64,000 bases of DNA from Candidatus Omnitrophota bacterium. Lineage in GTDB: Bacteria > Omnitrophota > Gorgyraeia > Gygaellales > Profunditerraquicolaceae. Under the pieces are notes generated by a model. That model had not been told where the DNA came from, did no database searches, and saw only the letters and a program-made list of their open reading frames with translations. Positions within the stretch are counted from its first letter, which is position 1. The number at the start of each line of letters is the position of its first letter. A program made the position numbers and the translations under genes. The stretch is taken from contig CAINQO010000035.1 of NCBI GenBank assembly GCA_903852325.1, positions 34,117-98,116 on the forward strand. The letters run 5' to 3'. This document shows, in pieces, positions 7,498 to 56,203 of this stretch.

Positions 7498-8250
7498 ATG
7501 AAGATTAAAAAAATATTCAGTTGGCAGGTGGTGCTCGGGTTTAGTTTGATCATGCTTTCCGCCGCCGTTTACGGTATCCATTATCTGATTTTCCGGGATG
7601 CCCGGTATATTTTCAGTTATTTGATCAGCGATACCGCTTTTGTTTTCCTGGAAGTATTCCTGGTGACTATGGTCGTGCACAATCTCCTGGCGCAGCGGGA
7701 AAAACAGGCGCTGTTTAAAAAAATGAACATGGTGATCGGCGCTTTTTTCAGTCAGGTGGGCAAGGAGCTGGTTAAGTTTTGCGTGGCCTTCGACGCCCAG
7801 GGAGAAGAGTTGGCCGCTAAATTCATCGTGCGCAACGAATGGACGGCCAAGCAATTTAAAGACCTGCAGAAGGAGATTTCCGGTTTTTCCTGTGCGGTTG
7901 ACTGCCATAAAGGGGACCTGGAAGGCTTGAAACTATTTTTGGTAAAAAACCGGGGTTTTCTCCTGGCACTTTTGGAGAACCAGAACCTCCTGGAGCACGA
8001 GTCCTTTACCGACCTGCTTTGGGCGGTTTTTCATCTTACGGAAGAACTGGAAGGCAGGCAAACCCTGCAGGGGCTTGATCCGGCGGACTATAAACATCTT
8101 AACGGGGACATCCAGCGGGCTTACCGGCAATTGATCCGCCAGTGGCTCCTGTATATGGAGCATCTTAAGGCGGATTATCCGTATTTGTTTTCCCTGGCGA
8201 TGCGGACCAATCCTTTCGACCGTAAGGCGACGATCCAGGTGCGCGCGTAA
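7498..8250 (+). CDS. hypothetical membrane protein (2 TM helices plus cytoplasmic helical domain)
   Basis: Two hydrophobic helices in the first ~70 aa and SD-like GAGGAAAAATG. No family recognised. Confidence 0.6.
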   Translation: MKIKKIFSWQVVLGFSLIMLSAAVYGIHYLIFRDARYIFSYLISDTAFVFLEVFLVTMVVHNLLAQREKQALFKKMNMVIGAFFSQVGKELVKFCVAFDAQGEELAAKFIVRNEWTAKQFKDLQKEISGFSCAVDCHKGDLEGLKLFLVKNRGFLLALLENQNLLEHESFTDLLWAVFHLTEELEGRQTLQGLDPADYKHLNGDIQRAYRQLIRQWLLYMEHLKADYPYLFSLAMRTNPFDRKATIQVRA

Positions 8251-9734: not shown

Positions 9735-10450
9735 AAATAAAATTAAGGCAATCCGGCAGTTGCATTATTTTGGATTTGTGCGGGCGCATCGACGTGGATT
9801 CGGCAAACCTGGTCGAGGTGGTCGGCCAGTGCGTGCGGGACGGTTACCCGGACCTGCTCTGCAACCTGGAGGAGGTTACCGGGATAGACTATATGGGGAT
9901 ATCGGTGATCGTCATCGCTTATAAAGAAGTAGTGAACCATCACGGGAGGATGAAATTCGTCAATATCCCGGCGCAATTACGCAGCGTATTCGCGGTTTCC
10001 GGAATGGACCGGGTAGTGGAGATTTACGGCAGCGAAGAGCTGGCGCTCAACAGTTTTAAGGAGGATAAAATTATCGAGGAAATCAAGCGGATGCAGCTGC
10101 GCCGCCGGTTCAAGCGCCTGCCGATCGATTTAAAAATAGAATTAAAATCCAAAACCGACTCTTCCGCCGCATGCCAGAAAGCGGACATCCTTAATTTAAG
10201 CGCGGTGGGGGCTTTTATTTTCGGTTGCGGCAAATTCAGGCTGAAGGATGAAGTGGTCATGAAAATGAAGCTCGGGCCCAAGCAGGAGGAGCTTCAGCTT
10301 GACGGGCGGGTGGTATGGGTACCGGATAAAGAGGTGCAGATCCACGAGTATCCGGGGATTGGAGTGGAGTTTTATGATATTTCTTCGGCCAATCAACAAA
10401 GGTTGATCGAGTTTATCGACCGGAACCTTTCCTCGCTGCCTCAGGAATGA
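9728..10450 (+). CDS. STAS (anti-sigma-antagonist-like) domain fused to a PilZ c-di-GMP-binding domain
   Basis: The N-terminal ~110 aa are STAS-like. PilZ motifs RRFKR (RxxxR, nt 10103-10117) and NLSAVG ((D/N)xSxxG, nt 10193-10210) are present. Confidence 0.75.
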   Translation: MLEIKLRQSGSCIILDLCGRIDVDSANLVEVVGQCVRDGYPDLLCNLEEVTGIDYMGISVIVIAYKEVVNHHGRMKFVNIPAQLRSVFAVSGMDRVVEIYGSEELALNSFKEDKIIEEIKRMQLRRRFKRLPIDLKIELKSKTDSSAACQKADILNLSAVGAFIFGCGKFRLKDEVVMKMKLGPKQEELQLDGRVVWVPDKEVQIHEYPGIGVEFYDISSANQQRLIEFIDRNLSSLPQE

Positions 10451-14598: not shown

Positions 14599-14664
14599 AG
14601 GAAGGGCGGATTGAATCCCGCCCTTCCTCAGCGATTTAAGTTAGCAAAGGAAGGGTTGGGATGA
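14599..14664 (+). promoter_or_regulatory. three-arm SD-copy / anti-SD / SD switch with short uORF upstream of the GT4-GT9 gene
   Basis: AGGAAGGGCGG (14599-14609) pairs with CCGCCCTTCCT (14618-14628). The same middle arm can instead pair with AGGAAGGGTTGGGA (14648-14661), which holds the SD and the A of ATG 14661. The uORF runs from TTG 14611 to TGA 14664. Confidence 0.55.
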
Positions 14665-16754
14665 AGATTTTACAAATTTTGCCGGAACTTAATGTCGGAG
14701 GGGTAGAGACCGGGACGGTGGACCTTTCCCGTCATCTGGTGCGCCTGGGGCATAAATCGGTGGTGGTTTCCGCCGGCGGAGCGCTGGTCAAAGAACTGGA
14801 GGAGGCGGGGGCTAAACACTATCAACTGCCGGTAAATAAAAAATCCATCATCTCCATGATCAAGCTGGTTCCGGAGTTAGCCGAAATTATCAAACGGGAA
14901 GGGATCGAGATCGTACATGCCCGCTCAAGGGCGCCGGCCTGGATCGCTTATTTTGCCTGCCGAAGGACCCAGGCGGTATTCGTTACCACTTGCCACGGTT
15001 ATTACCAGAAACATCTTTTTAGCGCGGTAATGGGCTGGGGCAAAAAAGTGATCGTTTTAAGCAACGTGATCGCCCGGCACATGATCGAGGATTTTGCCGT
15101 TCCCCATGAGCGGATCAAGCTGGTGCCGCGCAGCGTGGATCTGGAGAAATTTAAATACCGGGACCCTAAAAACAAAAGGAAAGAAGATTTTAATGTCGGT
15201 ATCATCGGCCGGATCACCCCGCTAAAAGGGCATTTGCATTTTATCAAAGCCATGGCACGCATTTCCCGCTCCGTCCCGCGCCTGAAGATCTGGATCGTCG
15301 GCGATGCTCCGGCTTCCAAGGAAGCTTATAAAGAAGAACTGCAAATTTTAGTGCGCCGCCTGGGTTTATGGCATTGCACGGAATTTCTGGGCACGCAGCG
15401 GGATATTCCGGGAATATTGGAGAACCTGGATCTGGTGGTTTTAGCCACGACTACTCAGGAGGCCTTCGGCAGGGTGGTTGTAGAGGCGCAGGCCTGCGGG
15501 GTACCGGTGGTGGCGACCAGGGTCGGAGGGGTGATCGATATTATCGAGGACGGCAAGAACGGGCTCCTGGTCCCTCCGGCGGATTCCAAAAGCATGTCGG
15601 AGGCGGTGATGCGTATTTTTAAGGACGCGGAATTCGCCCGCATCCTGGCGGAAAATGCCTACGCTAAGGTCAAAGAAAAATATAATGTGGAATTGATGGT
15701 CAAAAATACTTTAGAGGTTTACCGGGAGGCGCTGAATAATTTTAAGATCCTGGTGATCAAGCTCAGTTCTTTAGGGGACGTGATCCTTTCTACGGCGGCC
15801 TTAAGGGCGATCCGGGAAAAATTTCCCCAAAGTAAATACAAGATAAGTTTTCTGGTCGGGGAAGAATCCAAGGACCTGCTTTTGCGCTGCCCGTATATCG
15901 ACGAACTTCTGGTTTGCGACTTAAAAAATAAGGACCGCGGCCCCTTCGGTTTGCTGAGGATGGGTCAGCTTTTACGGAAGAAAAATTTCGACTCGGTGAT
16001 CGATCTGCAAAATAGCCGTTCCAGCCACCTGCTGGCTTATCTGAGCGGTTGCGTCCACCGCTACGGATATGACAATAAAAAGTTTTCCTTTTTGCTCAAC
16101 TACCGGATCCAGGATCAAAAAACCCCGCTGGACCCGGTAACCCACCAGTTCAGGATCCTTAAGCTGCTGGGGATCGACCTGTTGAATAATGCCCTTGAGC
16201 TTTGGCCTTCCGCGGAAGACCGGGAGAAGGTGGAGGAACTTTTTAATTCCCAATGGTTGAGCCAGGTGCAGAAAGTGGTGGGGATCAATATCAGCGCTTC
16301 CTCCAGATGGGAGACAAAACTCTGGCCGCTGGAATACGTGATCACCCTGTGTGAAGAACTGGAAGCCAGGGATATCCGGGTGGTCATTACCGGTAAGCAA
16401 GAGGATCAGCCGCGCGCCAACATGCTCGTCGATTCGCTTAAGAACACCAAGGTGATCAATGCCTGCGGCAAGACCAATATCAACGAATTGGCGGTGTTGA
16501 TCAAAAAATGCAATGTGTTCATCTCCGCCGATTCTTCTCCTTTGCATATCGCTTCCGCGGTGGGCACTCCTTTTGTCGCTTTGTTCGGCCCGACGGATCC
16601 TTTGCGGCACCTTCCCCCCGGGGCTAATTACGCGGTGATCGATAAGAAATTGAATTGCAGCCCTTGTTATAAAAATAGATGCCGCAGTAAGCGCTGCATG
16701 ATCGAGATCGATCCGGCGCAGGTTTTTGAAGCGGTAATGAAGTTATTGAAATAA
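14661..16754 (+). CDS. fusion glycosyltransferase: GT4 (N-terminal) plus GT9 heptosyltransferase-like (C-terminal)
   Basis: The N-terminal half has a GT4 E(x7)E-type region (EAFGRVVVEAQACGVPVV). The C-terminal half starts FKILVIKLSSLGDVILS and ends with GPTDP...CSPC, typical of GT9. Confidence 0.8.
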   Translation: MKILQILPELNVGGVETGTVDLSRHLVRLGHKSVVVSAGGALVKELEEAGAKHYQLPVNKKSIISMIKLVPELAEIIKREGIEIVHARSRAPAWIAYFACRRTQAVFVTTCHGYYQKHLFSAVMGWGKKVIVLSNVIARHMIEDFAVPHERIKLVPRSVDLEKFKYRDPKNKRKEDFNVGIIGRITPLKGHLHFIKAMARISRSVPRLKIWIVGDAPASKEAYKEELQILVRRLGLWHCTEFLGTQRDIPGILENLDLVVLATTTQEAFGRVVVEAQACGVPVVATRVGGVIDIIEDGKNGLLVPPADSKSMSEAVMRIFKDAEFARILAENAYAKVKEKYNVELMVKNTLEVYREALNNFKILVIKLSSLGDVILSTAALRAIREKFPQSKYKISFLVGEESKDLLLRCPYIDELLVCDLKNKDRGPFGLLRMGQLLRKKNFDSVIDLQNSRSSHLLAYLSGCVHRYGYDNKKFSFLLNYRIQDQKTPLDPVTHQFRILKLLGIDLLNNALELWPSAEDREKVEELFNSQWLSQVQKVVGINISASSRWETKLWPLEYVITLCEELEARDIRVVITGKQEDQPRANMLVDSLKNTKVINACGKTNINELAVLIKKCNVFISADSSPLHIASAVGTPFVALFGPTDPLRHLPPGANYAVIDKKLNCSPCYKNRCRSKRCMIEIDPAQVFEAVMKLLK

Positions 16755-16806
16755 GCAATATACCTGGCGCTTAGTGGTATTGCGCCAGTACGCGCCACGT
16801 GGCGCG

Positions 16807-16894
16807 AGGGGCGGGATGACCCCGCACCATCTTCTAATTCACGCTTTAAGTCCTAAGGTTTAATAACAATTAACTATAAGGATGGTGCGGGGTG
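16807..16894 (+). promoter_or_regulatory. anti-SD/SD hairpin module upstream of the GT4 gene (degenerate uORF)
   Basis: CCCCGCACCATCTT (16820-16833) pairs with AAGGATGGTGCGGGG (16879-16892) over 14 bp including one G-U. The GTG start is at 16892. Confidence 0.55.
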
Positions 16895-17992
16895 CGGATT
16901 TTATTTTTAGCCAATCATCTTAATGTCGGGGGGATCTCCAGTTACTTGCTGACCTTGGGTAGCGGATTGAAAGAAAAAGGGCATGAGGTTTATTTGGCCT
17001 CCGGGGGCGGTGAATTAGAGGAAAAATTCCGGCAGGCCGGAATAATCCTGATCAATGTCCCCTTGAAAACAAAAAGCGAGATCAGTCCGAAGATCCTGAT
17101 CAGTTACTGGAAATTAAAAAAGGCCGCTGCCGGTTTGCGGATCGAGCTTATTCATTCGCACAGCCGGACCACCCAGGTTTTGGGATGCTGGCTGGGCCGC
17201 TCCCTGGGCAGGCCGCATATTTTTACCTGCCACGGTTTCTTTAAACCGAAACTGCCGCGCAAGGTTTTCGGCTGCTGGGGCCAAAGGGTAATTGCTATCA
17301 GCTCCCAGGTCAAAGAGCACTTGACCGCGGATTTTAAATTCAGCGAAAATAAGATTAGCGTGATCCATAACGGCATCGACACGCAAAAATTCGGGGATTT
17401 TTCGGGAAGGGACCGCTTGCGCAGCAGTTTAGGGGTCGCCCCGGATGGTTTTTTGATCGGGATCATCGCCCGCCTCTCCGATGTGAAGGGGCATCTTTAC
17501 CTTATCCGGGCGATGCCGGAGATTTTAAAAAAATTCCCCGGGACCAAATTAGCGATAATCGGTCAGGGTAAGACCGAAGGCTCTTTGGTCAAAGAAACAG
17601 GGAATTTAGGGTTAGAGGGCAATATTTTATTTGTCCCGGAAGCAAAAGATACCCGGGAATGGCTTTGCGCCATGGATGTTTTTGCCATGCCTTCGCTGCA
17701 GGAAGGCTTGGGGCTGGCTTTGATGGAAGCGATGGCTCAGGGTTTAGCCGTGGCCGGATCGGCGGTAGGGGGGATCAAAACCCTGGTCCAGGATAAAATT
17801 ACCGGACTGCTGGTCCCGGCGCGGGATGCGGGGGCGCTGGCGCAGGCGATCATCTCTTTGCTTGGGGATCCGGATTTACGCCGTAATTTAGGGGATCAGG
17901 CGCGCGAATTTATCGCCGCTAATTTTTCTAAAAAAGAAATGGTGGAAAAGACCGAAGGCCTTTACCGGCAGGTTTTAAATCCCAATGAGTGA
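16892..17992 (+). CDS. GT4 family glycosyltransferase
   Basis: MRILFLANHLNVGGISSY start and a C-terminal EGLGLALMEAMAQGLAV motif. Confidence 0.85.
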   Translation: MRILFLANHLNVGGISSYLLTLGSGLKEKGHEVYLASGGGELEEKFRQAGIILINVPLKTKSEISPKILISYWKLKKAAAGLRIELIHSHSRTTQVLGCWLGRSLGRPHIFTCHGFFKPKLPRKVFGCWGQRVIAISSQVKEHLTADFKFSENKISVIHNGIDTQKFGDFSGRDRLRSSLGVAPDGFLIGIIARLSDVKGHLYLIRAMPEILKKFPGTKLAIIGQGKTEGSLVKETGNLGLEGNILFVPEAKDTREWLCAMDVFAMPSLQEGLGLALMEAMAQGLAVAGSAVGGIKTLVQDKITGLLVPARDAGALAQAIISLLGDPDLRRNLGDQAREFIAANFSKKEMVEKTEGLYRQVLNPNE

Positions 17993-21315: not shown

Positions 21316-22245
21316 ATGATCAACTTAAAGAAGGTTAAAAGATATTCGCTTAAAGCCCGTTTAAGCAAGGTAAATAAGGGGGATTTTGCCCTTAAACCGG
21401 CTAAAGGCAGGAGTTTTTCCGTTTTTTTTGACTCCTTACCTAATATTTTAAAAGCCAAAGATTTACGCTCGGTTTCTGCCGATATTATCGCGGCGCGCCG
21501 GAAAAATAAAGGGGTGATTTTAATGGCCGGGGCCCACGTGATCAAGTGCGGGCTTAATCCGGTTTTGATCGAGTTGTTGGAAAAAAAAGTGATTACCTGT
21601 ATCTGCCTTAACGGGGCCGGATTGATCCACGATTTTGAGATCGCCTACCAGGGGAAGACTTCGGAAGATGTGGCCGCCAACCTCAAAGACGGGAAATTCG
21701 GGATGGGGATCGAGACCGCGGATTTTATCAACGCCGCGGTCAAAGAAGGGACTGAGGCGGGCTTTGGATTAGGTTATGCCTTAGCCAATAAAATGGCCGG
21801 GGCAGCTTTACCCAATAAAGATCTAAGCCTGATTTATAATGCCTATAAGCGTAAAATCCCGGTTTGTGTTTTTGCGGCGATCGGTACGGATATAATCCAT
21901 CAGCACCCTTCTTTCGACGCTGCGGCAACCGCCGTGGGCTCATTGCGGGATTTCCATATCCTGGTGGAGAGGATCCGCTCCTTGAATCAGGGGGGAGTGG
22001 TTTTAAATTTCGGCTCCGCGGTGCTTTTGCCTGAAGTATTTTTAAAGGCTTTGAACCTTGCCCGCAACCTGGGCAGCAAAGTGAAAGATTTTACTTCCGC
22101 TAATTTCGATATGATTTACCAGTACCGCGCGGCACAGAATGTAGTGAGCCGTCCCACCGCTTCCGGGGGTAAAGGCTATTATATTATCGGTCACCATGAG
22201 ATCATGCTGCCGCTTTTAGCCCAAAGTATATTGGAAAAAATCTGA
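21316..22245 (+). CDS. deoxyhypusine-synthase-like (DHS-fold) family protein, function unknown
   Basis: MAGAHVIKCGLNPVLIELLEKKVITCICLNGAGLIHDF and IPVCVFAAIGTDIIHQHP resemble DHS-family blocks; this is a by-eye call only. ATG 21316 is preferred over the track's TTG at 21277. Confidence 0.45.
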   Translation: MINLKKVKRYSLKARLSKVNKGDFALKPAKGRSFSVFFDSLPNILKAKDLRSVSADIIAARRKNKGVILMAGAHVIKCGLNPVLIELLEKKVITCICLNGAGLIHDFEIAYQGKTSEDVAANLKDGKFGMGIETADFINAAVKEGTEAGFGLGYALANKMAGAALPNKDLSLIYNAYKRKIPVCVFAAIGTDIIHQHPSFDAAATAVGSLRDFHILVERIRSLNQGGVVLNFGSAVLLPEVFLKALNLARNLGSKVKDFTSANFDMIYQYRAAQNVVSRPTASGGKGYYIIGHHEIMLPLLAQSILEKI

Positions 22246-22317
22246 CCCCGCACCTTCTTCGTATTCGATCTGAAGGTCAGGGGTAAAAAATAGTTAATAA
22301 TAGGAAGGTGCGGGGTG
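22246..22317 (+). promoter_or_regulatory. anti-SD/SD hairpin module between the DHS-like gene stop and the heptose kinase start
   Basis: CCCCGCACCTTCTT (22246-22259) begins directly after the TGA stop (22243-22245). It pairs over 14 bp with AGGAAGGTGCGGGG (22302-22315). The GTG start is at 22315. Confidence 0.6.
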
Positions 22318-23328
22318 AAGAACCTAAAAGAGATTGTCCGCAAATTCAAGCGGGCTAATATTTTGGTCGTCGGAGACCTGATCCTGGATGAATACATCTG
22401 GGGCGCGGTGGAGAGGATCTCTCCGGAGGCTCCCGTGCCGGTGCTTTGGGCCAACAAACGTACTTTTGTTCCCGGGGGCACCGCTAACGTGGCCAATAAC
22501 ATCGGCTCCTTCGGGGCAAAAGTGACTCTTTTGGGGGTCACCGGTTCCGACGCGAACTCCAAGATTTTGCTGGGCGAATTAAAGAAGAGAAAGATCGATA
22601 CGCGGGGTATTTTTGTCGAAAAAAATCGGCACACTACGGTCAAGACGCGGATCCTGGCCGGGCATCAGCAGGTAGTCCGGGTGGATTGGGAACATACCCA
22701 TGATCTGTCTCAAGAGTTAAACGATAAGATTTTAAAATTCATCCAGAAGAATATCGATGATTTCGACGCGATCATTATCGAGGATTACGGCAAAGGGGTA
22801 ATCAATGTCCCGCTCTTGAAAACGCTGATCGCTTTGGCGAAAAACCATAAAAAAATCATTACCGTTGATCCGAAAGAGGAGAACTTTCAGTTTTATCGGT
22901 CGGTAGATTCGATCACTCCTAACCGCAAGGAGCTGGAAAACGCGATAAGGAATTTGAAGATCCAGGACACGACCAACGGTTTCAAGATCAATACGGATAA
23001 ACTCTTTACGGATAAGGATGTGGACCGGGCTGCCCGGGAGATCCTGGAATACCTGCGTCTTGATTCTATTCTGGTTACCCTGGGGGAGCACGGGATGAAA
23101 CTTTTGGAAAAGAACGGCCGCCTTACCCATATTCCCACGGTAGCCCAGGAAGTTTTCGATGTTTCCGGCGCGGGGGATACCGTAATCAGCACCTTTACCC
23201 TGGCTTTAAGCGTGGGCGCTTCCAAATTAGAGGCGGCGCACATCGCCAATTTTGCCGCAGGGATAGTGGTAGGTAAATTGGGCACGGCAGTGACCAACAC
23301 TAAAGAACTATTAGAAAGGATTAAATAA
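22315..23328 (+). CDS. hldA: D-glycero-beta-D-manno-heptose-7-phosphate kinase (RfaE domain I type, stand-alone)
   Basis: ILVVGDLILDEYIWGAVERISPEAPVPV and the PfkB C-terminal motif DVSGAGDTV. No adenylyltransferase domain is present. Confidence 0.85.
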   Translation: MKNLKEIVRKFKRANILVVGDLILDEYIWGAVERISPEAPVPVLWANKRTFVPGGTANVANNIGSFGAKVTLLGVTGSDANSKILLGELKKRKIDTRGIFVEKNRHTTVKTRILAGHQQVVRVDWEHTHDLSQELNDKILKFIQKNIDDFDAIIIEDYGKGVINVPLLKTLIALAKNHKKIITVDPKEENFQFYRSVDSITPNRKELENAIRNLKIQDTTNGFKINTDKLFTDKDVDRAAREILEYLRLDSILVTLGEHGMKLLEKNGRLTHIPTVAQEVFDVSGAGDTVISTFTLALSVGASKLEAAHIANFAAGIVVGKLGTAVTNTKELLERIK

Positions 23329-24881: not shown

Positions 24882-24899
24882 ACTTTAATAAGGTGCGGG

Positions 24900-25868
24900 A
24901 TGAGTATTGATTTGATCAAACGGGCAAAAGAAGTTTTGGAAATCGAAGCGCAGGCAGTGCGCCGGTTAAAGGGGTGCCTGGATAAAGGTTTTATTAAAGC
25001 GGTTGAGCTGATCCTGAAGAGCAAGGGCAGGGTAGTGGTTAGCGGAATGGGCAAGACCGGAATTATCGCCCAAAAATTTTCCGCGACTCTTGCTTCGACC
25101 GGGACCCCCAGTTTATTCCTGCATACCGCCGAAGCTATTCACGGGGATTTAGGCAAGGTTACCGCGGATGATGTGGTGATCATCCTTTCTAACAGCGGTT
25201 CGACCGAGGAGATGAAACAGCTTTTGCCGATCCTCAAAAAGATCGGCGCTCCGATCATTTCTTTGACCGGCAACACCAAATCCATTCTGGCCAAATACAG
25301 CGATGTGGTCCTGGATGTCTCCGTGAAAAAAGAGGCCTGTCCGTTAGGTTTGGCCCCCACGGCTTCCACTACCGCGGCTTTGGCGATGGCCGATGCCCTG
25401 GCGGTCTGCCTGCTGGAACGTAAGGGGTTTAAAGAAAAGGATTTTGCATTTTTCCATCCTGGGGGCACTTTAGGCAAGCGCCTGCTTTTGAGCGTCGCGG
25501 ATATCATGCGCCAGGGGCAGTCTAATGCCATTGTCCGCGAGGATAAATTGGTGGCGGAAGTTTTGTTGGCGATTACCCGGGCCCGGGCCGGCAGCGCTAT
25601 TGTGGTGGATAAGCAGGGAAAACTGAAGGGGATATTCACCGACGGAGACCTGCGCCGGCATTTAGCCACCGACAAGTATTTACCGCAGCGGCCGATCAAA
25701 GAAGTAATGACCAAAAACCCCACGGTAGTGAGCAAAGATATGCTGGCGGCAGAGGCGATGCGGATATTACAGGCCAGGAAGATCGATGAAGTCCCGGTGG
25801 TGGATAAATTCAGGCGCCCGGTGGGCTTATTGGATGTCCAGGACCTGCTTAAAGCCGGATTAATTTAA
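24900..25868 (+). CDS. kdsD: arabinose-5-phosphate isomerase (SIS plus tandem CBS)
   Basis: GRVVVSGMGKTGIIAQKF SIS motif and a C-terminal CBS pair. Its initiation string AAGGTGCGGGATG belongs to the recurrent family. Confidence 0.9.
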   Translation: MSIDLIKRAKEVLEIEAQAVRRLKGCLDKGFIKAVELILKSKGRVVVSGMGKTGIIAQKFSATLASTGTPSLFLHTAEAIHGDLGKVTADDVVIILSNSGSTEEMKQLLPILKKIGAPIISLTGNTKSILAKYSDVVLDVSVKKEACPLGLAPTASTTAALAMADALAVCLLERKGFKEKDFAFFHPGGTLGKRLLLSVADIMRQGQSNAIVREDKLVAEVLLAITRARAGSAIVVDKQGKLKGIFTDGDLRRHLATDKYLPQRPIKEVMTKNPTVVSKDMLAAEAMRILQARKIDEVPVVDKFRRPVGLLDVQDLLKAGLI

Positions 25869-27403: not shown

Positions 27404-28106
27404 GGGCCTGGCTAAATCCTATGACGGTCGCTGGGTGGTTAAGGGCGTGGATATCACGGTCAAGCGCGGGGAGATCGTCGGGCTTTTAGGCCCCAACGGA
27501 GCCGGCAAGACTACTACTTTTTATATGATCGTCGGGATCGTCCCCCCCAACAAGGGCACGATCGTTTTTGATAACCATGAAATCACCCGGATGGCGATCC
27601 ACGAGCGGGCGCGTTTCGGGATCGGCTATCTTGCCCAGGAACCCTCGATATTCCGGAAACTGACCGTGGAAGAAAATATCAACGCGATCCTGGAGACTTT
27701 GCCTTTGAGCCGCGCGCAGAGAAAAAACCGGCTGGCGTTTTTGCTGGAGGAGTTGAATATCGCGCACCTGGCAAAGCATAAAGCCTACACTTTAAGCGGC
27801 GGAGAGAGAAGGCGCCTGGAGATCACCCGGGCGCTGGTGACCAATCCTTCTTTTATCCTGCTGGATGAACCTTTCAGCGGGATCGACCCGATCGTCGTCA
27901 ATGAAGCGCAGGAGATCATTAAGGAATTAAAGGCCAAAGGCCTGGGTATTCTTTTGACCGACCATAATGTGCGGGAGACCCTGGCGATCACCGACCGGGC
28001 GTATTTAATTTCCGAAGGGGCGATCCTTATTTCCGGATCCGCGGAGGAGCTGATTAATCACCCTCAGGCCCGCCAGGTTTATTTAGGTGAGAAGTTTAGG
28101 ATGTAA
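27384..28106 (+). CDS. lptB: LPS export ABC transporter ATP-binding protein
   Basis: Walker A is GPNGAGKTT, the signature is [11 protein letters not shown] and Walker B is ILLDEP. The C-terminus is YLGEKFRM. Confidence 0.95.
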
Positions 28107-28248
28107 CCCCGCACCTTCTTCTGTATTCGGAAGAAAAACGGATTGATTAAAGGCGCGGGACAATAATAACCATGGTCATTTCTTTAAACATCAAGGTTCA
28201 AAGCTTAGATGCAGGGAATGATATAATTAAGAAAGAAGGTGCGGGGTG
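28107..28248 (+). promoter_or_regulatory. anti-SD/SD hairpin module (109-nt loop) between the lptB stop and the tig start
   Basis: CCCCGCACCTTCTT (28107-28120) begins directly after the TAA stop. It pairs perfectly over 14 bp with AAGAAGGTGCGGGG (28233-28246). The GTG start is at 28246. Confidence 0.6.
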
Positions 28249-29133
28249 AAAACCGAAGTTAAGAAATTAGACGGAACTAAACGTGAAATTAATGTCGCCG
28301 TGACCGGCGACTTGGTCAAAAATAAATTTGAAGAAGTTTTCGCACAGGTCGCCAAAGAAGCCAAGGTCCCGGGTTTTCGCCCGGGAAAAGCGCCCCGGGA
28401 TCTTCTGGAAAAGCATTACGGTTCCAGCGTCCATGAGCAGGTGTTAAAGGAGCTGGTCCCGGATGTGTATAACCAGGCGGTCGCGGCGGAAAAACTCGAT
28501 GTCATTGAGCTGCCCCAGATCACCGATGTGCAGCTGGATCGGGCCAGCCTTTCTTTTAAAGCGGTCGTGGAGGTCAGCCCGGAAATTACGCTGAAGAATT
28601 ATAAAAACCAGGTAATTAATTATAAGCTGCCGGTTGTTTCCGCGGATGAAGTGAAACGCCAGATCGACTCGGTCAAGGAATCGCGTAAGGCCGAAAACCT
28701 GGATGATAAATTCGCCCGCTCCCTGGGTTATCCTGATTTAGGGGAATTGGAAAAAGCGGTGGAAAGACAGATCTTTCTTACCAAGGAGAATCAGGAACGC
28801 CAGCGGATTGAAAATGAATTAATCGAAAATATTACCAAAGGGGTGGAATTTAAGCTGCCGCAAGGATTGGTGGACCGGCAGGTTCAGGATATGCTGCGGC
28901 AGACCAAGATCGATTTGGCGATGAAAGGGCTGCCCCGGGAGAAGATCGACGCGCAGGATAAATTGCTTTTAGAGGGGATCGAACCGGAAGCAAAAAAGCA
29001 GGTCAAGATTTACCTGATCCTGGCGCAGATCGCGAAAAAAGAGAATATCGCCATCGACGACCATATGCCGCGCAAGGTGATGGAGTTTCTGCTGGGTGAA
29101 GCAGAGTGGAAGGCTGCACAAGAGAATAAATAG
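28246..29133 (+). CDS. tig: trigger factor-like chaperone lacking the PPIase domain
   Basis: The N-terminal ribosome-binding signature GFRPGKAP is present. The C-terminal arm domain follows directly, giving 295 aa versus about 430 for canonical TF. Confidence 0.8.
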   Translation: MKTEVKKLDGTKREINVAVTGDLVKNKFEEVFAQVAKEAKVPGFRPGKAPRDLLEKHYGSSVHEQVLKELVPDVYNQAVAAEKLDVIELPQITDVQLDRASLSFKAVVEVSPEITLKNYKNQVINYKLPVVSADEVKRQIDSVKESRKAENLDDKFARSLGYPDLGELEKAVERQIFLTKENQERQRIENELIENITKGVEFKLPQGLVDRQVQDMLRQTKIDLAMKGLPREKIDAQDKLLLEGIEPEAKKQVKIYLILAQIAKKENIAIDDHMPRKVMEFLLGEAEWKAAQENK

Positions 29134-29266
29134 CGGTATTCATGTTGATTAGCTCCGCGCCTAAGCCTTGGATGTTACGCTTAGCATATATTCGAATATT
29201 GTAACGCGCGGAGTAAATTAAAAATTACCACTTATTATAAATAATTTTAAATTTAAGGAGGCAAAA
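29131..29266 (+). promoter_or_regulatory. structured leader/repeat upstream of clpP (copy 1 of 2)
   Basis: About 90 nt are shared with 55531-55645. The 8-bp stem CTCCGCGC/GCGCGGAG (29153-29160/29206-29213) encloses hairpin CTAAGC/GCTTAG and the palindrome ATATTCGAATAT. Confidence 0.55.
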
Positions 29267-35804: not shown

Positions 35805-35852
35805 ATATCGAACGAGAGAGTAGTTAGCAGGCTGAATGCGGGTTAGTTAACA

Positions 35853-37198
<1,346 letters not shown>

Positions 37199-42492: not shown

Positions 42493-43674
42493 ATGAATCC
42501 TGCTCCAAAAAATATTGCGGTTTTAGGTTCCAGCGGCTCTATCGGTCAAAGTACTTTGGAAGTGGTCAGGGGCCTGCCGCGTGAATTTAAAATTGTCGCC
42601 CTAAGCGTTAATTCCGATATTGTCCGGTTAGAACAACAGATCAGGGAATTTAGGCCGAAATTAGTCTGTGTCGGGGATCCCCGGCAAGCGGTAAAATTAA
42701 GCGCCCGGACCGGTCCAGGGGTAAAAGTTCTTTGCGGAAAATCCGGCCTGGAAGAATTGGCGCAGCATAAAGATATTCAACAGGTGATGGTGGCGATTAC
42801 CGGCGCAAATGCTTTAGCTCCGTTAATCAGCGCGATCAAAAGCGGCAAAGAAGTGGCTTTGGCTAACAAAGAAGCGCTGGTGATGGCCGGCTCGCTGGTG
42901 ATGCGTTTAGCCAGCCGGCATAAAGTTTTGATCCGTCCGGTAGATAGCGAACAGTCGGCGATCTGGCAGAGCCTGGGCGATAGCGGGGCGGAAAATATCA
43001 GGAAGATATACCTGACCGCTTCCGGCGGGCCGCTTCGGACCTGGCCGGCAAGTAAGTTTAAGCGGGTGTCGGTGGAAGAAGTATTGCGCCATCCGCGTTG
43101 GAAAATGGGCAGGAAGATCACGGTAGACTCGGCAACCTTGATGAATAAAGGGCTGGAGCTGCTGGAAGCGATGTTCCTGTTCGGCCTGGGGGAGGATAAA
43201 ATAAAAGTATTGGTCCACCCGGAAGCGTTGATCCATTCCATGGTCGAATTTAAGGATGGGGTGACCATGGCGCAGCTTTCCGTCACGGATATGCGCGTGC
43301 CTATCCAGTACGCCTTGACCTATCCCCGGCGCCTGCCGAATACGATCAGGGGAATAGATTTTTACCGTTTGCATAAACTGCATTTTGCCAAACCTGATCT
43401 ACAAAAGTTTCCCTGCCTGGCGCTGGCTTACCAGGCTGCCCGGCAGTTAGGCACCGTGCCGGCGGTTTTAAATGCCGCCAATGAAGCCTGCGTAGAGATG
43501 TTCCTTGAGCGCAAGATCGGTTTCTTAAGTATCGCCGGGATCGTGGAGAAAGTGATGCGCCGCCATACCAGGATTTCTTCTCCGGGATTGCGGGAAATAA
43601 TGGATGCCGATAGCTGGGCCAGGGAGGAAGTTTTGCGCATCGCCGCCGGCTCAAAAACTATGAGGGTTTTATAA
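42493..43674 (+). CDS. dxr: 1-deoxy-D-xylulose-5-phosphate reductoisomerase
   Basis: IAVLGSSGSIGQSTL, LANKEALV and HPRWKMG motifs. Confidence 0.95.
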   Translation: MNPAPKNIAVLGSSGSIGQSTLEVVRGLPREFKIVALSVNSDIVRLEQQIREFRPKLVCVGDPRQAVKLSARTGPGVKVLCGKSGLEELAQHKDIQQVMVAITGANALAPLISAIKSGKEVALANKEALVMAGSLVMRLASRHKVLIRPVDSEQSAIWQSLGDSGAENIRKIYLTASGGPLRTWPASKFKRVSVEEVLRHPRWKMGRKITVDSATLMNKGLELLEAMFLFGLGEDKIKVLVHPEALIHSMVEFKDGVTMAQLSVTDMRVPIQYALTYPRRLPNTIRGIDFYRLHKLHFAKPDLQKFPCLALAYQAARQLGTVPAVLNAANEACVEMFLERKIGFLSIAGIVEKVMRRHTRISSPGLREIMDADSWAREEVLRIAAGSKTMRVL

Positions 43675-52566: not shown

Positions 52567-53550
52567 ATGAATAAGAAGCGGATATTAAGCGGAATGCGTC
52601 CGACGGGCAAGCTGCACCTTGGGCACCTGGTGGGGGCGCTTTCCAACTGGATCAAGCTGCAGGATGAATACGACTGTTTTTTTATGGTGGCGGATTGGCA
52701 CGCGCTGATGTCGGAGTACGAAAATCCGGCTGAGCTTAAGGCGAACATGCTGGATAATGTGCTGGATTGGCTGGCCTGCGGGATTGACCCGGGAAAATCG
52801 GTGATTTTTATCCAGTCGCAGATCCCGGAGCATCTTGAGCTATATTTTATCCTTTCCCTGATCACCCCCCTGGGGCTGCTTGAGCGCTGCCCTACTTATA
52901 AGGAACAACTGCGCCAGGTAACCAACCGGGATTTAAGCACCTACGCTTTTTTAGGTTATCCGGTATTGCAGGCCGCCGACATCCTGCTTTATAAAGCCGA
53001 TAGCGTACCGGTTGGAGAGGATCAATTGCCGCATTTAGAGCTGACCCGCCAGATCGCGCGTAAGTTCAACCATATTTATAAAACAGATTGTTTTTCCGAT
53101 CCCAAGGCCTTGCTTACCCAGACTACCCGGCTTTTGGGTTTAGACGGCCGCAAGATGAGCAAGAGTTATAATAATTACATCGCTATTTCCGAGGCGCCGG
53201 AAGTGATCCGTAAAAAAGTGCAGGGGATGTTTACCGACCCGGCGCGCATCCGGGTCACCGACCGGGGGCATCCGGAAAAATGTAATGTTTATTATTATTA
53301 TGAAGCTTTTTTCCCCGAGATAAAAGACAAGGTCCATGACCGTTGTGTTAATGCCCAGATCGGCTGCACGGAATGCAAAAAAGAACTGGCGGACCGGTTG
53401 ATCGGATTATTGGCGCCTATTCAGGAAAAAAGGAAGGCTTTGGAAAAAGATAAAAAGTATATTCAAGAAATTTTATCCGTTGGACGGGAAAAGGCCGACC
53501 TTTCAGCCAAAAAAACCATCGCCCAGGTCAAAGGGCTTTTAAAGATATAA
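52567..53550 (+). CDS. trpS: tryptophanyl-tRNA synthetase
   Basis: SGMRPTGKLHLGH (HIGH-type motif) and KMSKS are both present. Confidence 0.95.
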   Translation: MNKKRILSGMRPTGKLHLGHLVGALSNWIKLQDEYDCFFMVADWHALMSEYENPAELKANMLDNVLDWLACGIDPGKSVIFIQSQIPEHLELYFILSLITPLGLLERCPTYKEQLRQVTNRDLSTYAFLGYPVLQAADILLYKADSVPVGEDQLPHLELTRQIARKFNHIYKTDCFSDPKALLTQTTRLLGLDGRKMSKSYNNYIAISEAPEVIRKKVQGMFTDPARIRVTDRGHPEKCNVYYYYEAFFPEIKDKVHDRCVNAQIGCTECKKELADRLIGLLAPIQEKRKALEKDKKYIQEILSVGREKADLSAKKTIAQVKGLLKI

Positions 53551-53719
53551 AGGAAGGGCGGGATGAACCCTGCATTTTCTTGTTATTCAATATTAAAGTC
53601 TTAGGAATTTGATGATTAAACAGAAGGAAGGTGCGGGGGTGAATCCCGCTCCTTCTAATTGTTCAATGCTAAAACCCATACGTTTTAAAGAATTCAATAA
53701 GAAAGAAGGAGCGGGATGA
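53551..53719 (+). promoter_or_regulatory. tandem (about 2.5 copies) anti-SD/SD hairpin modules with two uORFs between trpS and scpA
   Basis: The arms lie at 53551-53562, 53568-53582, 53621-53639, 53644-53656 and 53704-53716. The last pair is a perfect 13-bp helix covering the SD GAAGGAG and the A of ATG 53716. Confidence 0.6.
53639..53719 (+). CDS. candidate 26-aa leader peptide (uORF2); its stop overlaps the scpA ATG
   Basis: The frame GTG 53639 to TGA 53717-53719 encodes (V/M)NPAPSNCSMLKPIRFKEFNKKEGAG. It is preceded by an SD copy GAAGGTG and is homologous to the uORF at 35853-35933. Confidence 0.35.
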   Translation: MNPAPSNCSMLKPIRFKEFNKKEGAG

Positions 53720-54489
53720 ATTATAAAATCCGCTTAGAGATGTTTGAGGGGCCCTTAGACCTGCTGCTTTACCTGGTCAAGAAAGACCACCTGAATATCT
53801 ACGATATCCCCATCGCCAAGGTCACCCAGCAATACCTGGAATATATCAACCTGATGCAGCTTTTGGATTTGAATGTGGTCGGGGAGTTTTTGGTGATGGC
53901 GGCGACCCTGATGCAGATAAAATCCAAGATGCTTCTTCCGGCGGAGGAGTTGGCCGCGCAGGAGGAGGAAGAGGATCCGCGCGCTGAGCTGGTCAAGCGG
54001 CTTTTGGAATATGAAAAATTCAAACAGATCGCCGAAAATTTAAAACAGCGGGAAGCCAGCCAGCAGGAAGTTTTTAAACGCCCCAAGACCGAGACCCCGC
54101 AGGAGCTGCAGGTGCAGGATAAGGAAGAGGAAAAGTATTTTGAAGCCAGCATTTTTGACCTGATCGATGCCTTTTCCCGGGCGATCAAAGACATCCCCCG
54201 GGAAGTTTTTTACGAAGTGATTAAGGATCAGTTTACGGTCGAGCAGAAGGTGCATGATATTCTGCATTTATTGCTGGTAGAAACAAAAATCAAGCTTTCG
54301 GATCTTTTCTCCAAGAGCAAGGGCAAGCTAGAGATCATCGCCATATTTTTGGCGATCCTTGAGCTGGCGAAAATGAAGGAGATCCTTGCCCGCCAGGACG
54401 CCGATTTTGCCGACATTATCATTATCCGCAACAAGGAAAACATAATCCCTTATGAACGAAGAGACCAGACACCCGCTGCTGAAGGCTAA
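53716..54489 (+). CDS. scpA: segregation and condensation protein A
   Basis: FEGPLDLLLYLVKKDHLNIYDIPIAKVTQQYLEYI N-terminus. Confidence 0.9.
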   Translation: MNYKIRLEMFEGPLDLLLYLVKKDHLNIYDIPIAKVTQQYLEYINLMQLLDLNVVGEFLVMAATLMQIKSKMLLPAEELAAQEEEEDPRAELVKRLLEYEKFKQIAENLKQREASQQEVFKRPKTETPQELQVQDKEEEKYFEASIFDLIDAFSRAIKDIPREVFYEVIKDQFTVEQKVHDILHLLLVETKIKLSDLFSKSKGKLEIIAIFLAILELAKMKEILARQDADFADIIIIRNKENIIPYERRDQTPAAEG

Positions 54490-55504: not shown

Positions 55505-55645
55505 ATTAACAATTGCCACTGATTATAATAGGTAGTGGTTGAAAGCGTCGAACTAAGCCTATAGGTTACGGTTTATATATATTCGAATATTGAAACGTTC
55601 GACGTAAATTAAAAATTACCACTGATTATAAACAATTTTTAATTT
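55505..55645 (+). promoter_or_regulatory. structured leader/repeat upstream of queH (copy 2 of 2)
   Basis: The 8-bp stem CGTCGAAC/GTTCGACG (55546-55553/55597-55604) compensates for the copy-1 stem. It carries the same ATATTCGAATAT palindrome and the AAATTAAAAATTACCACT tail. It is flanked by direct repeats AATT(G/A)CCACTGATTATAA (55511-55528 and 55614-55631). Confidence 0.55.
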
Positions 55646-56203
55646 ATGGATATTCTGTTGCACATCTGCTGCGGGCCTTGTTTGATTTATCCTTTCGGCA
55701 AATTAAAAGAAAAAGGATTTAATATCCGGGGTTATTACTATAATCCCAATCTCTATCCGCAGGATGAATATCTTCGCCGCGTTGAGGCGCTGCAGCTCTT
55801 ATGCCGGGAATTTTCGCTGGAGGTCGCCTATCCCGGGCACAACCCTGAGGATTTTTCCCGGACAGTTAAATCCCTGGAAGATCCTTTGGCAAAACAGCGC
55901 TGCGTTTTATGCTGGTCATTGCGTTTGCGTAAGACCGCCCAGGCGGCCAGGGAAGCCGGCGTAAAAACGTTCAGCACTACTTTATTGGTCAGCCCGTACC
56001 AGGATCATGACGCGTTGCGCCGTTTAGGCACTCAGATCGCCCGGGAAACCGGCGTAGATTTTTATTATGAAGATTTCCGCCCCGGGTTTAAATGGGCGCA
56101 GCAGGAAGCGAAAGATAAAGGTATTTACCGGCAAAAATATTGCGGCTGCGAATATTCCATGGTGAAAACAAAACCGGCCGCACCGGTCCAGGCAAAAAAA
56201 TGA
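55646..56203 (+). CDS. queH: epoxyqueuosine reductase QueH (DUF208)
   Basis: LLHICCGPC start and the later CxxC and CGCEYS motifs. It lies in a locus with queA and tgt. Confidence 0.85.
   Translation: MDILLHICCGPCLIYPFGKLKEKGFNIRGYYYNPNLYPQDEYLRRVEALQLLCREFSLEVAYPGHNPEDFSRTVKSLEDPLAKQRCVLCWSLRLRKTAQAAREAGVKTFSTTLLVSPYQDHDALRRLGTQIARETGVDFYYEDFRPGFKWAQQEAKDKGIYRQKYCGCEYSMVKTKPAAPVQAKK

Follow-up and report, generated by a model that had tools for sequence, protein, structure and literature searches.

Introduction

Two kinds of bacterial sequences come close to the subject of this work, namely small repeats dispersed in front of unrelated genes and RNA structures that make the translation of one cistron depend on that of the preceding one. 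Here we analyze positions 16,755 to 16,894 of a 64,000-nucleotide (nt) stretch of contig CAINQO010000035.1 from a Candidatus Omnitrophota bacterium (the whole stretch is referred to as the window), which can be recognized as one copy of a palindromic hairpin family of Candidatus Omnitrophota, around 70-90 nt long (roughly 85 bases), in which the 3' arm is the Shine-Dalgarno (SD) sequence and start codon of the gene that follows, in this case a GT4 glycosyltransferase gene. The REP2 repeats of Neisseria and the IR-A/IR-B repeats of Borrelia resemble this element in being dispersed and located directly upstream of open reading frames (ORFs), in fusing a ribosome-binding site (RBS) and an initiation codon to unrelated genes, and in having internal stem-loops (PMC3184786). 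REP2 differs in its length of 120-150 bp, the absence of terminal inverted repeats (TIRs) and the presence of a promoter (PMC3184786). The Omnitrophota element, in contrast, has terminal arms that pair the SD and start codon with an anti-SD sequence, shows no conserved promoter-like site, and is intercistronic, abutting the upstream stop codon and flanked by a target duplication.

Repetitive extragenic palindromic (REP) sequences lie close to stop codons in Escherichia coli, and a REP/REPIN unit is an imperfect palindrome of 20-40 nt with a conserved GTAG-type head, doublets of which form a hairpin. The arms of the element are not palindromic themselves and have no GTAG-type head. The Correia elements, which are MITEs (miniature transposable elements with inverted repeats) of Neisseria, have 26-bp TIRs, generate a TA duplication and are found in either orientation. 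They share with the element a small size, a non-autonomous nature, inverted-repeat ends and target duplication, as well as the existence of many copies beside genes, co-transcription, a hairpin in the mRNA and differences in presence or absence between genomes (PMC2649163, PMC2229807). Unlike the element, they create promoters and bind integration host factor and RNase III (PMC2649163), and supply neither an SD nor a start codon. The palindromic elements of Rickettsia (PMC10969869) are also repeats compatible with translation, as is the case here for a 12-nt remnant in frame in dxr; these insert inside ORFs and add peptide segments, whereas our element sits at the start codon and its own ORF is usually broken.

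With respect to translation, the RNA-unfolding model of translational coupling (PMC12548453) applies to pairs such as the coat and lysis genes of MS2 or genes VII and IX of f1, where, as is proposed for the element, a structure sequesters the downstream RBS and ribosomes completing the upstream ORF occupy the opposite strand of that structure; the downstream gene stays silent in the absence of upstream translation (PMC12548453). The known cases are individual, locus-specific structures, whereas the element is a stereotyped, portable module that precedes about 10% of the genes in the window and has a putative coupling role. ATGA/TGATG overlaps, with termination-reinitiation (PMC6728339, PMC10666635), are the probable ancestral state of the junctions now occupied, and in intact copies the stop codon of a short upstream ORF (uORF) again overlaps the start of the gene, as GTGA or ATGA. 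The element places the two genes 60-140 nt apart, a distance at which reinitiation coupling reportedly fails (PMC6728339, PMC10666635). The ribosome termination structure (RTS; bioRxiv 10.1101/2020.02.10.941153) is described as an insulator that lowers re-initiation, and the downstream SD is not inside it. None of REP2/IR repeats, Correia elements and structure-mediated coupling unites arms at the termini that hide the SD and start codon with a location at stop/start junctions, a duplicated target and a strict orientation with respect to genes. A literature search returned no description of repeats in Omnitrophota, nor of MITEs carrying an SD and a start codon; the element joins small palindromic repeats and SD-masking coupling structures, a pairing that is not known to have been reported.

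Results and Discussion

Anatomy of the element upstream of the GT4 gene

The region contains the following features:

16752-16754, + strand: TAA stop codon of the upstream GT4-GT9 fusion gene, 14661-16754 (ORF list; Pfam domains on an identical contig)
16764-16770 with 16782-16788, + strand: GC hairpin 1, CTGGCGC TTAGTGGTATT GCGCCAG, 7 bp, perfect (inverted-repeat scan)
16791-16806, + strand: 16-nt perfect palindrome CGCGCCACGTGGCGCG (halves CGCGCCAC/GTGGCGCG), found once in the window (inverted-repeat scan)
16806-16818, + strand: relic ribosome-binding box GAGGGGCGGG (16806-16815), most likely of the GT4 gene, and ATG 16816 (sequence; comparison with L131 and L122)
16816-16863, + strand: 15-codon uORF MTPHHLLIHALSPKV followed by TAA, 16861-16863 (translation of the ATG frame)
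16819-16833, + strand: 5' arm (anti-SD) ACCCCGCACCATCTT, with a compensatory A/T change relative to the family consensus (inverted-repeat scan, fold)
16834-16878, + strand: AT-rich loop, of the subtype with TATTCA..TTAAAG..GGTTTAAT..AATAAG (alignments, covariance-model alignment)
16879-16893, + strand: 3' arm AAGGATGGTGCGGGGT, which includes the SD AAGGA and, from the GTG start, the first two bases (inverted-repeat scan, fold)
16892-17992, + strand: GT4 glycosyltransferase gene, with SD and start inside the stem (ORF list, homologues, Pfam)

The segments 16819-16831 and 16881-16893 (13 nt) are 100% complementary and, when extended to 16819-16833 and 16879-16893, form 15 bp with one G-U pair; the predicted energy of the hairpin is -29.7 kcal/mol (z = -2.4), and a covariance model derived from other copies recovers it with 58 bits (E = 6e-12). 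The use of GTG 16892 as the start of GT4 agrees with the orthologues, since the N-terminus MRILFLANHLNVGG matches the consensus MNILFIANHLNVGG of 29 of them. The same 156-nt region was found without differences in three independent assemblies, which excludes an assembly error at this locus.

The two hairpins (the CTGGCGC/GCGCCAG stem and the 16-nt palindrome), the SD-like box followed by ATG 16816 and the paired arms had been listed in a previous reading made from the letters alone (the sequence-only reading), and all could be reproduced at the same positions. The same holds for the translation of the ATG 16816 frame as an unrelated 15-amino-acid peptide, and for the alternative NPA frame, which still reads DDPAPSSNSRFKS. 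Reading through the 5' arm in a frame other than that of the family consensus, the uORF terminates within the loop, 15 nt ahead of the SD. Crude scans of the + strand, to be taken with the caution that Omnitrophota promoters may differ, revealed neither a T-tract terminator nor a sigma-70-like promoter in 16600-17000; sigma-70-like sites were also absent from 22200-22340 and 53540-53740, around other copies, and one weak match was present in 35847-35876. A sigma-54 promoter in hairpin 1 was considered and discarded by eye, the spacing TGGCGC..TTGC being wrong.

Conservation and covariation of the stem

The consensus unit comprises xTGAA (a stop or start codon, with TGA(A)), Y, CCCGCACCTTCT, an AT-rich loop mostly of 45-55 nt, AGAAGGTGCGGG, R and TG(AA). 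It is therefore bounded by inverted arms of 13-14 nt, Y-CCCGCACCTTCT and AGAAGGTGCGGG-R, and the second of these serves a real gene as SD and start codon. Covariation was evaluated in an alignment of 78 copies restricted to their arms. Compensatory changes appeared in 14 of the 16 stem pairs, the observed values were not reached in any of 500 shuffles, and slid controls were far lower. The copy at 16892 is itself an example, since CCTTC/GAAGG has changed to CCATC/GATGG in it, a double compensatory change, and the proposal of the sequence-only reading that the RNA arms had been kept where the peptide frame was lost is borne out both in this copy and family-wide. A second test was done on 770 positions with 5' arms chosen by their similarity to the consensus and not by pairing, which introduces a bias against compensation. 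It gave 11 complementary double changes, one non-complementary double change and 17 one-sided breaks, when only around 0.6 double changes would be expected by chance. Fully compensated variants exist in L150 (CCCGTTACATCTC/GAGATGTAACGGG), L143, L042, L044, L153 and L129 (L numbers designate the loci used for comparison), and there is covariation between the base preceding CCCGC and the initial base of the start codon (CG 28, UA 14; that is, C goes with GTG and T with ATG). In the sense strand there were 38 G-U combinations versus 19 C-A/A-C, an excess more readily expected if the pairing occurs in the transcript than if it occurs in DNA. The predicted folding energies of full-length single copies in the window lie between -29.7 and -32.7 kcal/mol (z from -2.4 to -4.9).

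According to RNAalifold, the structure is conserved in the outer 14 bp only; an extended inner stem of the TATTCAA/TTGAATA type was rejected, being found in single copies only. The arms are nearly invariant (738 of 770 positions), with the 5' arm as well conserved as the 3' arm, and loops are around 60% identical. Taken together, the pattern of changes identifies the RNA stem, and not the peptide, as the conserved entity. Extended pairing with 16S rRNA is an unlikely cause of arm conservation, given that genes in the window that lack the element use canonical SDs of the GGAGG type.

Distribution of the family

Six to seven copies are present in the window, ahead of seven unrelated gene starts and all of them on the + strand, as are nearly all genes. 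Besides the GT4 copy, the related features are:

14609-14666, + strand: short diverged copy CCCGCCCTTCCT / AGGAAGGGTTGGG before the GT4-GT9 gene (ATG 14661), with a relic box GGAAGGGCGGATTGAA on its 5' side (model match of 24.8 bits; fold -27.7 kcal/mol)
22239-22320, + strand: copy before an hldE-like gene, its stem 1 nt away from the upstream stop TGA (22243-22245), start GTG 22315 (covariance model, fold)
28102-28251, + strand: composite copy with a long loop before the trigger factor gene, with the upstream stop TAA (28104-28106) abutting the 5' arm and start GTG 28246 (covariance model)
35851-35935, + strand: intact copy before purA, with a 26-amino-acid uORF whose TGA overlaps GTG 35930 (covariance model, fold)
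53561-53721, + strand: two tandem copies before scpA (ATG 53716), with a relic box GGAAGGGCGGG ATGAA on the 5' side of the pair (covariance model)
24889-24902, + strand: solo SD box TAAGGTGCGGG and ATG, without 5' arm, before gene 24900 (sequence scan)
42496-42507, + strand: 12-nt in-frame remnant of the 5' arm, AATCCTGCTCCA (NPAP), at the N-terminus of dxr (missing from the orthologues in L127 and L129)

The genes following the element are functionally unrelated and include GT4, hldE, tig, purA, scpA and probably rpmJ (37-codon ORFs). The dxr remnant is evident in the first codons of the gene (42493-42510), which read ATG AAT CCT GCT CCA AAA (MNPAPK) in the window and ATG AAA AAT (MKN) in L127 and L129. 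At the tandem and nested sites (53627-53655 and 53555-53575), a short hairpin is possible between the relic SD box and the 5' arm that follows, its loop containing the start codon; the minimum-energy fold prefers long-range stems over this local structure.

An exact-pattern scan of one genome per GTDB species gave at least 118 loci. Among the matches listed, 45 were titled Candidatus Omnitrophota or Omnitrophica, often with several per metagenome-assembled genome (MAG), a few were labelled Planctomycetota, and one MAG was labelled Moraniibacteriota. Another 57 of these listed matches were of high GC content (Streptomyces, Azospirillum and others) and were set aside as unrelated palindromes because of their GC-rich loops and the absence of start-codon flanks. 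The GT4 and purA homologues place the host in Omnitrophota, and at least 63 copies are present in loci of this phylum. Searches against Rfam returned no match at the gathering threshold in the whole window and nothing relevant at E values up to 10 in two of the copy regions, and neither tRNA nor tmRNA was detected in the window. In the MAG labelled Moraniibacteriota (L007 1559-1621, L014 1243-1305, L046 94-159) the arms are the same, CCCGCACCTTCC / GGAAGGTGCGGG, the loop is different and the flanks are ATAAAT/ATAAAA, with a frame of 150-363 codons running on directly after ATA. These copies raise the question of an ATA start codon, a start further downstream or a mislabelled bin.

Orientation with respect to genes was evaluated in 87 sites that match on both strands. 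In 68 of them, only one orientation has the SD arm immediately followed by a start codon and an ORF of 35 codons or more, and at none of the 87 do both. A sample not selected for the element, composed of 630 kb of Omnitrophota DNA from lipopolysaccharide clusters and purA regions fetched via GT4 and purA homologues, contained 12 copies, all of which (12/12) scored higher on the gene strand and which, apart from the first member of a tandem pair, lay directly ahead of a long ORF.

Probable insertion at stop/start junctions

Three junctions could be compared with empty orthologous sites, and TGA(A) is present on both sides of the element in all three. For hldE, the empty state ..ATATGAAAAAT, an ATGA overlap (L123, L125), corresponds to the filled state ..TC TGA [C CCCGC..GCGGG G] TGAAGAAC of the window and L063. 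The GT4-GT9 junction is ACTATGAGAATACTG when empty (L123) and ACTATGAA[T..G]TGAAGATACTG when filled (L153), and that of purA is ATGAATATAG in L126-L128 and ATGAA[C..G]TGAATATAG in the window. Where the flanks are not TGAA, they agree as direct repeats in four of seven copies (TGAG/TGAG twice, TGGA/TGGA twice), and direct repeats are not something that hairpin pairing could produce. The upstream stop codon lies 1-2 nt before CCCGC in 19 of 46 copies, in 12 of which it is the TGA inside ATGAAY, and within 14 nt of the stem in 32 of 46. The element hence behaves like a small, non-autonomous MITE- or REP-like insertion at the TGA(A) of an ATGA overlap or of an ATGAA start.

The GT4 junction was analyzed in 52 orthologues, with 28 showing a -4 overlap, three a -1 overlap, seven a gap of 1-10 nt and 14 a long gap. 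Orthologues less than 61% identical to the GT4 of the window have the short state in all but two cases, so that the stop/start overlap is probably ancestral at this junction.

Probable history of the GT4 junction

The box at 16806-16815 and ATG 16816 had been described in the sequence-only reading as a degenerate SD copy. Comparison with L131, where the GT4 protein is 71% identical, speaks against a decayed part of the repeat. In this locus, the upstream stop is followed by a GC hairpin of related type, CCCGGCGCTTAATGGATTTACGCCGG, which lies inside a CTGGCGC..GCGCCAG stem, and then by GAAAGGTGTGGA ATGAATATACTT, which is the GT4 start itself, with no element; the junction in L122, also without the element, is TGA GCAGGAAGGTGCGGGA GTGAACATACTT. 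Since L131 has hairpin, SD and ATG at the start of GT4, the 16806-16818 box can be read as an old GT4 start: the window locus looks like an L131-type leader with the element inserted into the GT4 start codon, GAGGGGCGGG and ATG 16816 being most likely the RBS and start codon that preceded the insertion. The same arrangement, with ATGAAT, is present in L009.

The two GC hairpins upstream of 16816 probably belong to this older leader; they are not members of the SD-masking family. The motif of hairpin 1, GGCGCTWANNNGNATTGCGCC, is absent elsewhere in the window and present in L136 (twice) and L073, and a close variant is found at the orthologous L131 junction. It defines a second, rarer hairpin family, YGGCGC-TTAnnnGWATT-GCGCCR, with representatives at 16764-16788 of the window, 7592-7612 and 7640-7660 of L136 (in tandem), 6594-6614 of L073 (- strand) and around 6436-6462 of L131. 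It is REP-like and intergenic in several Omnitrophota genomes, and shows one compensatory stem position (T-A versus C-G).

The junction between the old start and the 5' arm reads ATGA-CCCCGC at 16816, ATGAA-CCCCGC at 35853 and GTGAA-TCCCGC at 53638. The one-nucleotide deletion proposed for the first is plausible, and probably orthologous copies do differ by that one base (L013 versus L004_370; L131 versus the window and L063 at hldE). Its interpretation as a one-off decay does not stand, because ATGA-Y is a common variant: a stop triplet plus a single base is found in 12 of 63 copies, and in seven of these a long upstream ORF terminates with that triplet, 1 nt ahead of CCCGC.

Proposed mode of action

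The model we favour, with a probability of about 0.6, is that of a MITE- or REP-like insertion that rebuilds translation signals, after which initiation downstream is gated by the opening of the stem by the upstream ribosome. The SD and the initial base of the new start codon (R + TG) would be provided by the right end of the element, AAGAAAGAAGGTGCGGG and R. The left copy of the target would either keep the upstream stop codon or leave in place the former start codon, from which a short uORF would begin. Y and CCCGCACCTTCT, the left arm, are predicted to pair with SD, spacer and start codon in a stem of 14-15 bp and about -30 kcal/mol, and such a GC-rich stem should block free binding of the 30S subunit. 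Because the genes concerned are housekeeping genes and their SD is masked, something must open the stem. A ribosome that terminates 1-14 nt ahead of it could do so, as could a ribosome passing through the 5' arm during translation of the relic uORF; in either case, occupation of the 5' arm would release the SD and the start codon. In the 16892 copy, the 15-codon uORF driven by the relic RBS would fulfil this role, and its frame would be irrelevant for opening. ATGA overlaps give tight coupling (PMC6728339), and coupling by RNA unfolding would replace the termination-reinitiation lost upon insertion. We infer this coupling function from the geometry of the element. A stronger version, in which the element is a mobile "translational coupling cassette", is held only tentatively. 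Such a non-autonomous cassette would target stop/start overlaps and start codons and remain transparent to translation, keeping the stop, bringing an SD, rebuilding the start and, in its consensus form, staying open from the old ATG up to a new GTGA overlap. With the anti-SD arm, coupling by reinitiation would turn into coupling gated by structure, and a lineage-specific trans factor would read the near-invariant arms, so that the cell, or the element itself, would have a shared hold on around one in ten genes.

Several observations weigh against the gated-insertion model. The arms are conserved in sequence beyond what pairing demands, so that selection for structure is insufficient to account for them, and this hints at a sequence-specific partner (a transposase, an RNase or an RNA-binding protein) or at homogenization between copies. 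Apparent compensatory changes can also be obtained by intrastrand template switching in palindromes, without selection on RNA. As for the insertion, the length of the duplication is ambiguous (3-5 nt) and the trigger factor junction is not clean; in around 1.5 Mb of loci, no pair of arms 0.3-4 kb apart enclosed a candidate for an autonomous parent element. Loops are 60-80% identical (mean around 60%), with a single pair at 93% (L009), indicating that the copies are old, and this low identity rules out a recent transposition burst. Some 3' arms stand alone: there were 29 unpaired matches, seven of them perfect boxes directly before a gene, with solo 5' arms being rare, and solo SD boxes may either derive from the element or constitute an independent RBS module. 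With regard to coupling, the upstream stop is at least 17 nt away in 14 of 46 copies and about half of the uORF starts seem, by eye, to have no SD, so coupling is not the whole story. Furthermore, a stable structure just past a stop codon has been reported to insulate against re-initiation (bioRxiv 10.1101/2020.02.10.941153), and if the insulation described for RTS held here the element would uncouple the genes instead of coupling them.

Perfect or near-perfect solo boxes (GAAGGTGCGGG and a start codon, no 5' arm) were located at 24889-24902 of the window, L062 1170, L088 2514, L107 3348, L122 9989 and L124 7768, 9990 and 18240. In L124, a long perfect palindrome, GGGGACGGTTCTATAAAAGTGACAGTCAC..GTGACAGTCACTTTTAGAACCGTCCCC, is found just 5' of solo boxes at two junctions of one and the same cluster (around 7700-7770 and 9900-9990), and appears to be a different repeat in the same niche.

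Alternative explanations

A different possibility is that the conserved entity is a peptide of 26-28 amino acids (MNPAPS..K.EGAG) that works either as a small protein or as a regulatory leader, and of which the 16816 copy would be a pseudogenized version. A start codon (ATG, GTG or TTG) six bases before CCCGC exists in 44 of 63 copies, in which the uORF traverses the arm, and is missing from that position in the remaining 30%. Among those 44, the length class that keeps the frame is enriched (24/44) and 14 have full frames ending in a TGA that overlaps the downstream start, when 3.5 +/- 1.7 would be expected from loop shuffles; there is also some similarity in the middle of the peptide (..YS.IK...FN.LNK). 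The excess, about fourfold, is a weak signal confounded by conserved loop motifs; we attribute it to the consensus element itself, in which it is perhaps weakly maintained, and do not take it to show that the peptide is functional. Full frames add up to only 17 of 63 copies, being missing in 73% of them, and a second frame is open in 10 of the 44. The conserved ends of the peptide, NPAPS and KEGAG, are merely translations of the two arms, no codon periodicity is apparent in the variability of the loops (0.94/0.85/0.97), 1-nt indels distinguish copies that are probably orthologous, and the genes downstream are functionally unrelated. The sequence-only reading had suggested comparing codon patterns across copies and had reasoned that frames broken genome-wide would make the uORF incidental; both comparisons speak against selection on the peptide, with the reservation that "incidental" has to accommodate the excess of open frames. 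The short peptide would thus be largely a by-product, and we regard a role as the selected entity as extremely unlikely.

The element could also be a selfish or neutral MITE, its arms being TIRs for mobilization only, which is tolerated because stop, SD and start are rebuilt and whose hairpin has no role for the host. This would fit the presence/absence polymorphism with duplicated TGA(A), the lineage-specific abundance (6-7 copies in 64 kb here versus around 12 in 630 kb elsewhere) and the existence of tandem, nested and decayed copies (the latter in L125, L189 and L131) and of solo ends. We consider it unlikely, since conservation of the 5' arm, which by itself is useless to the SD, equals that of the 3' arm, compensatory changes and the G-U bias of the sense strand point to the transcript as the molecule that pairs, solo SD boxes persist and solo 5' arms are rare, and probably orthologous copies keep perfect arms when their loops diverge (the hldE loops of the window and L063 are 78% identical, and four rpmJ copies have very different loops). 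Alternatively, the stem might function in RNA processing or stability, being cut by RNase III between cistrons so that the SD is unmasked, or protecting mRNA ends. There is precedent in the Correia elements, which bind RNase III and are cleaved or protected (PMC2649163). A perfect, GC-rich stem of 14-15 bp that is always transcribed in sense between cistrons, with arms conserved in a sequence-specific manner suited to recognition by a protein, would agree with this possibility. RNase III substrates typically span about two helical turns, and the continuous stem of the element is shorter than that; the consensus fold has no conserved extension of the stem, and cleavage leaves unexplained the stop codons located 1-2 nt from its foot, all of which makes this reading quite improbable. 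Finally, a palindromic repeat in intergenic DNA, with short local hairpins and a T-rich run flagged in the tandem copy, could be a site for protein binding or recombination, or a terminator or attenuator between genes. An intrinsic terminator was rejected, as the stem runs into RTGAA and coding sequence without a U tract, and none was predicted at four copies. Strict orientation with respect to genes and the G-U bias of the sense strand are unexpected for a symmetric DNA site, and the SD and start codon lie inside the stem. A role at the DNA level is consequently very unlikely.

Implications and other repeats

A single module before many unrelated essential genes constitutes a natural replicated experiment on the passage of ribosomes between cistrons (unfolding versus scanning), in a phylum almost without genetics, and shows how an insertion can be tolerable inside tightly packed operons. 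For genome annotation, the start codons (mostly GTG or ATG followed by AA) become exactly placeable, short "uORFs" should not be called genes, and the dxr remnant has to be taken into account as part of a coding sequence. Should gating prove true, synthetic operons could make use of the 85-nt unit as a portable part for coupling.

With regard to the sequence context, GC skew is positive throughout the window, and many of its genes have a weak SD or none, with A-rich leaders, whereas the repeat provides a strong SD. The window also contains an AT-rich direct repeat of 86 nt, unrelated to the hairpin family, whose two copies (29174-29259 and 55565-55650) are 85% identical and located upstream of a Clp protease gene (29267) and of gene 55646, respectively.

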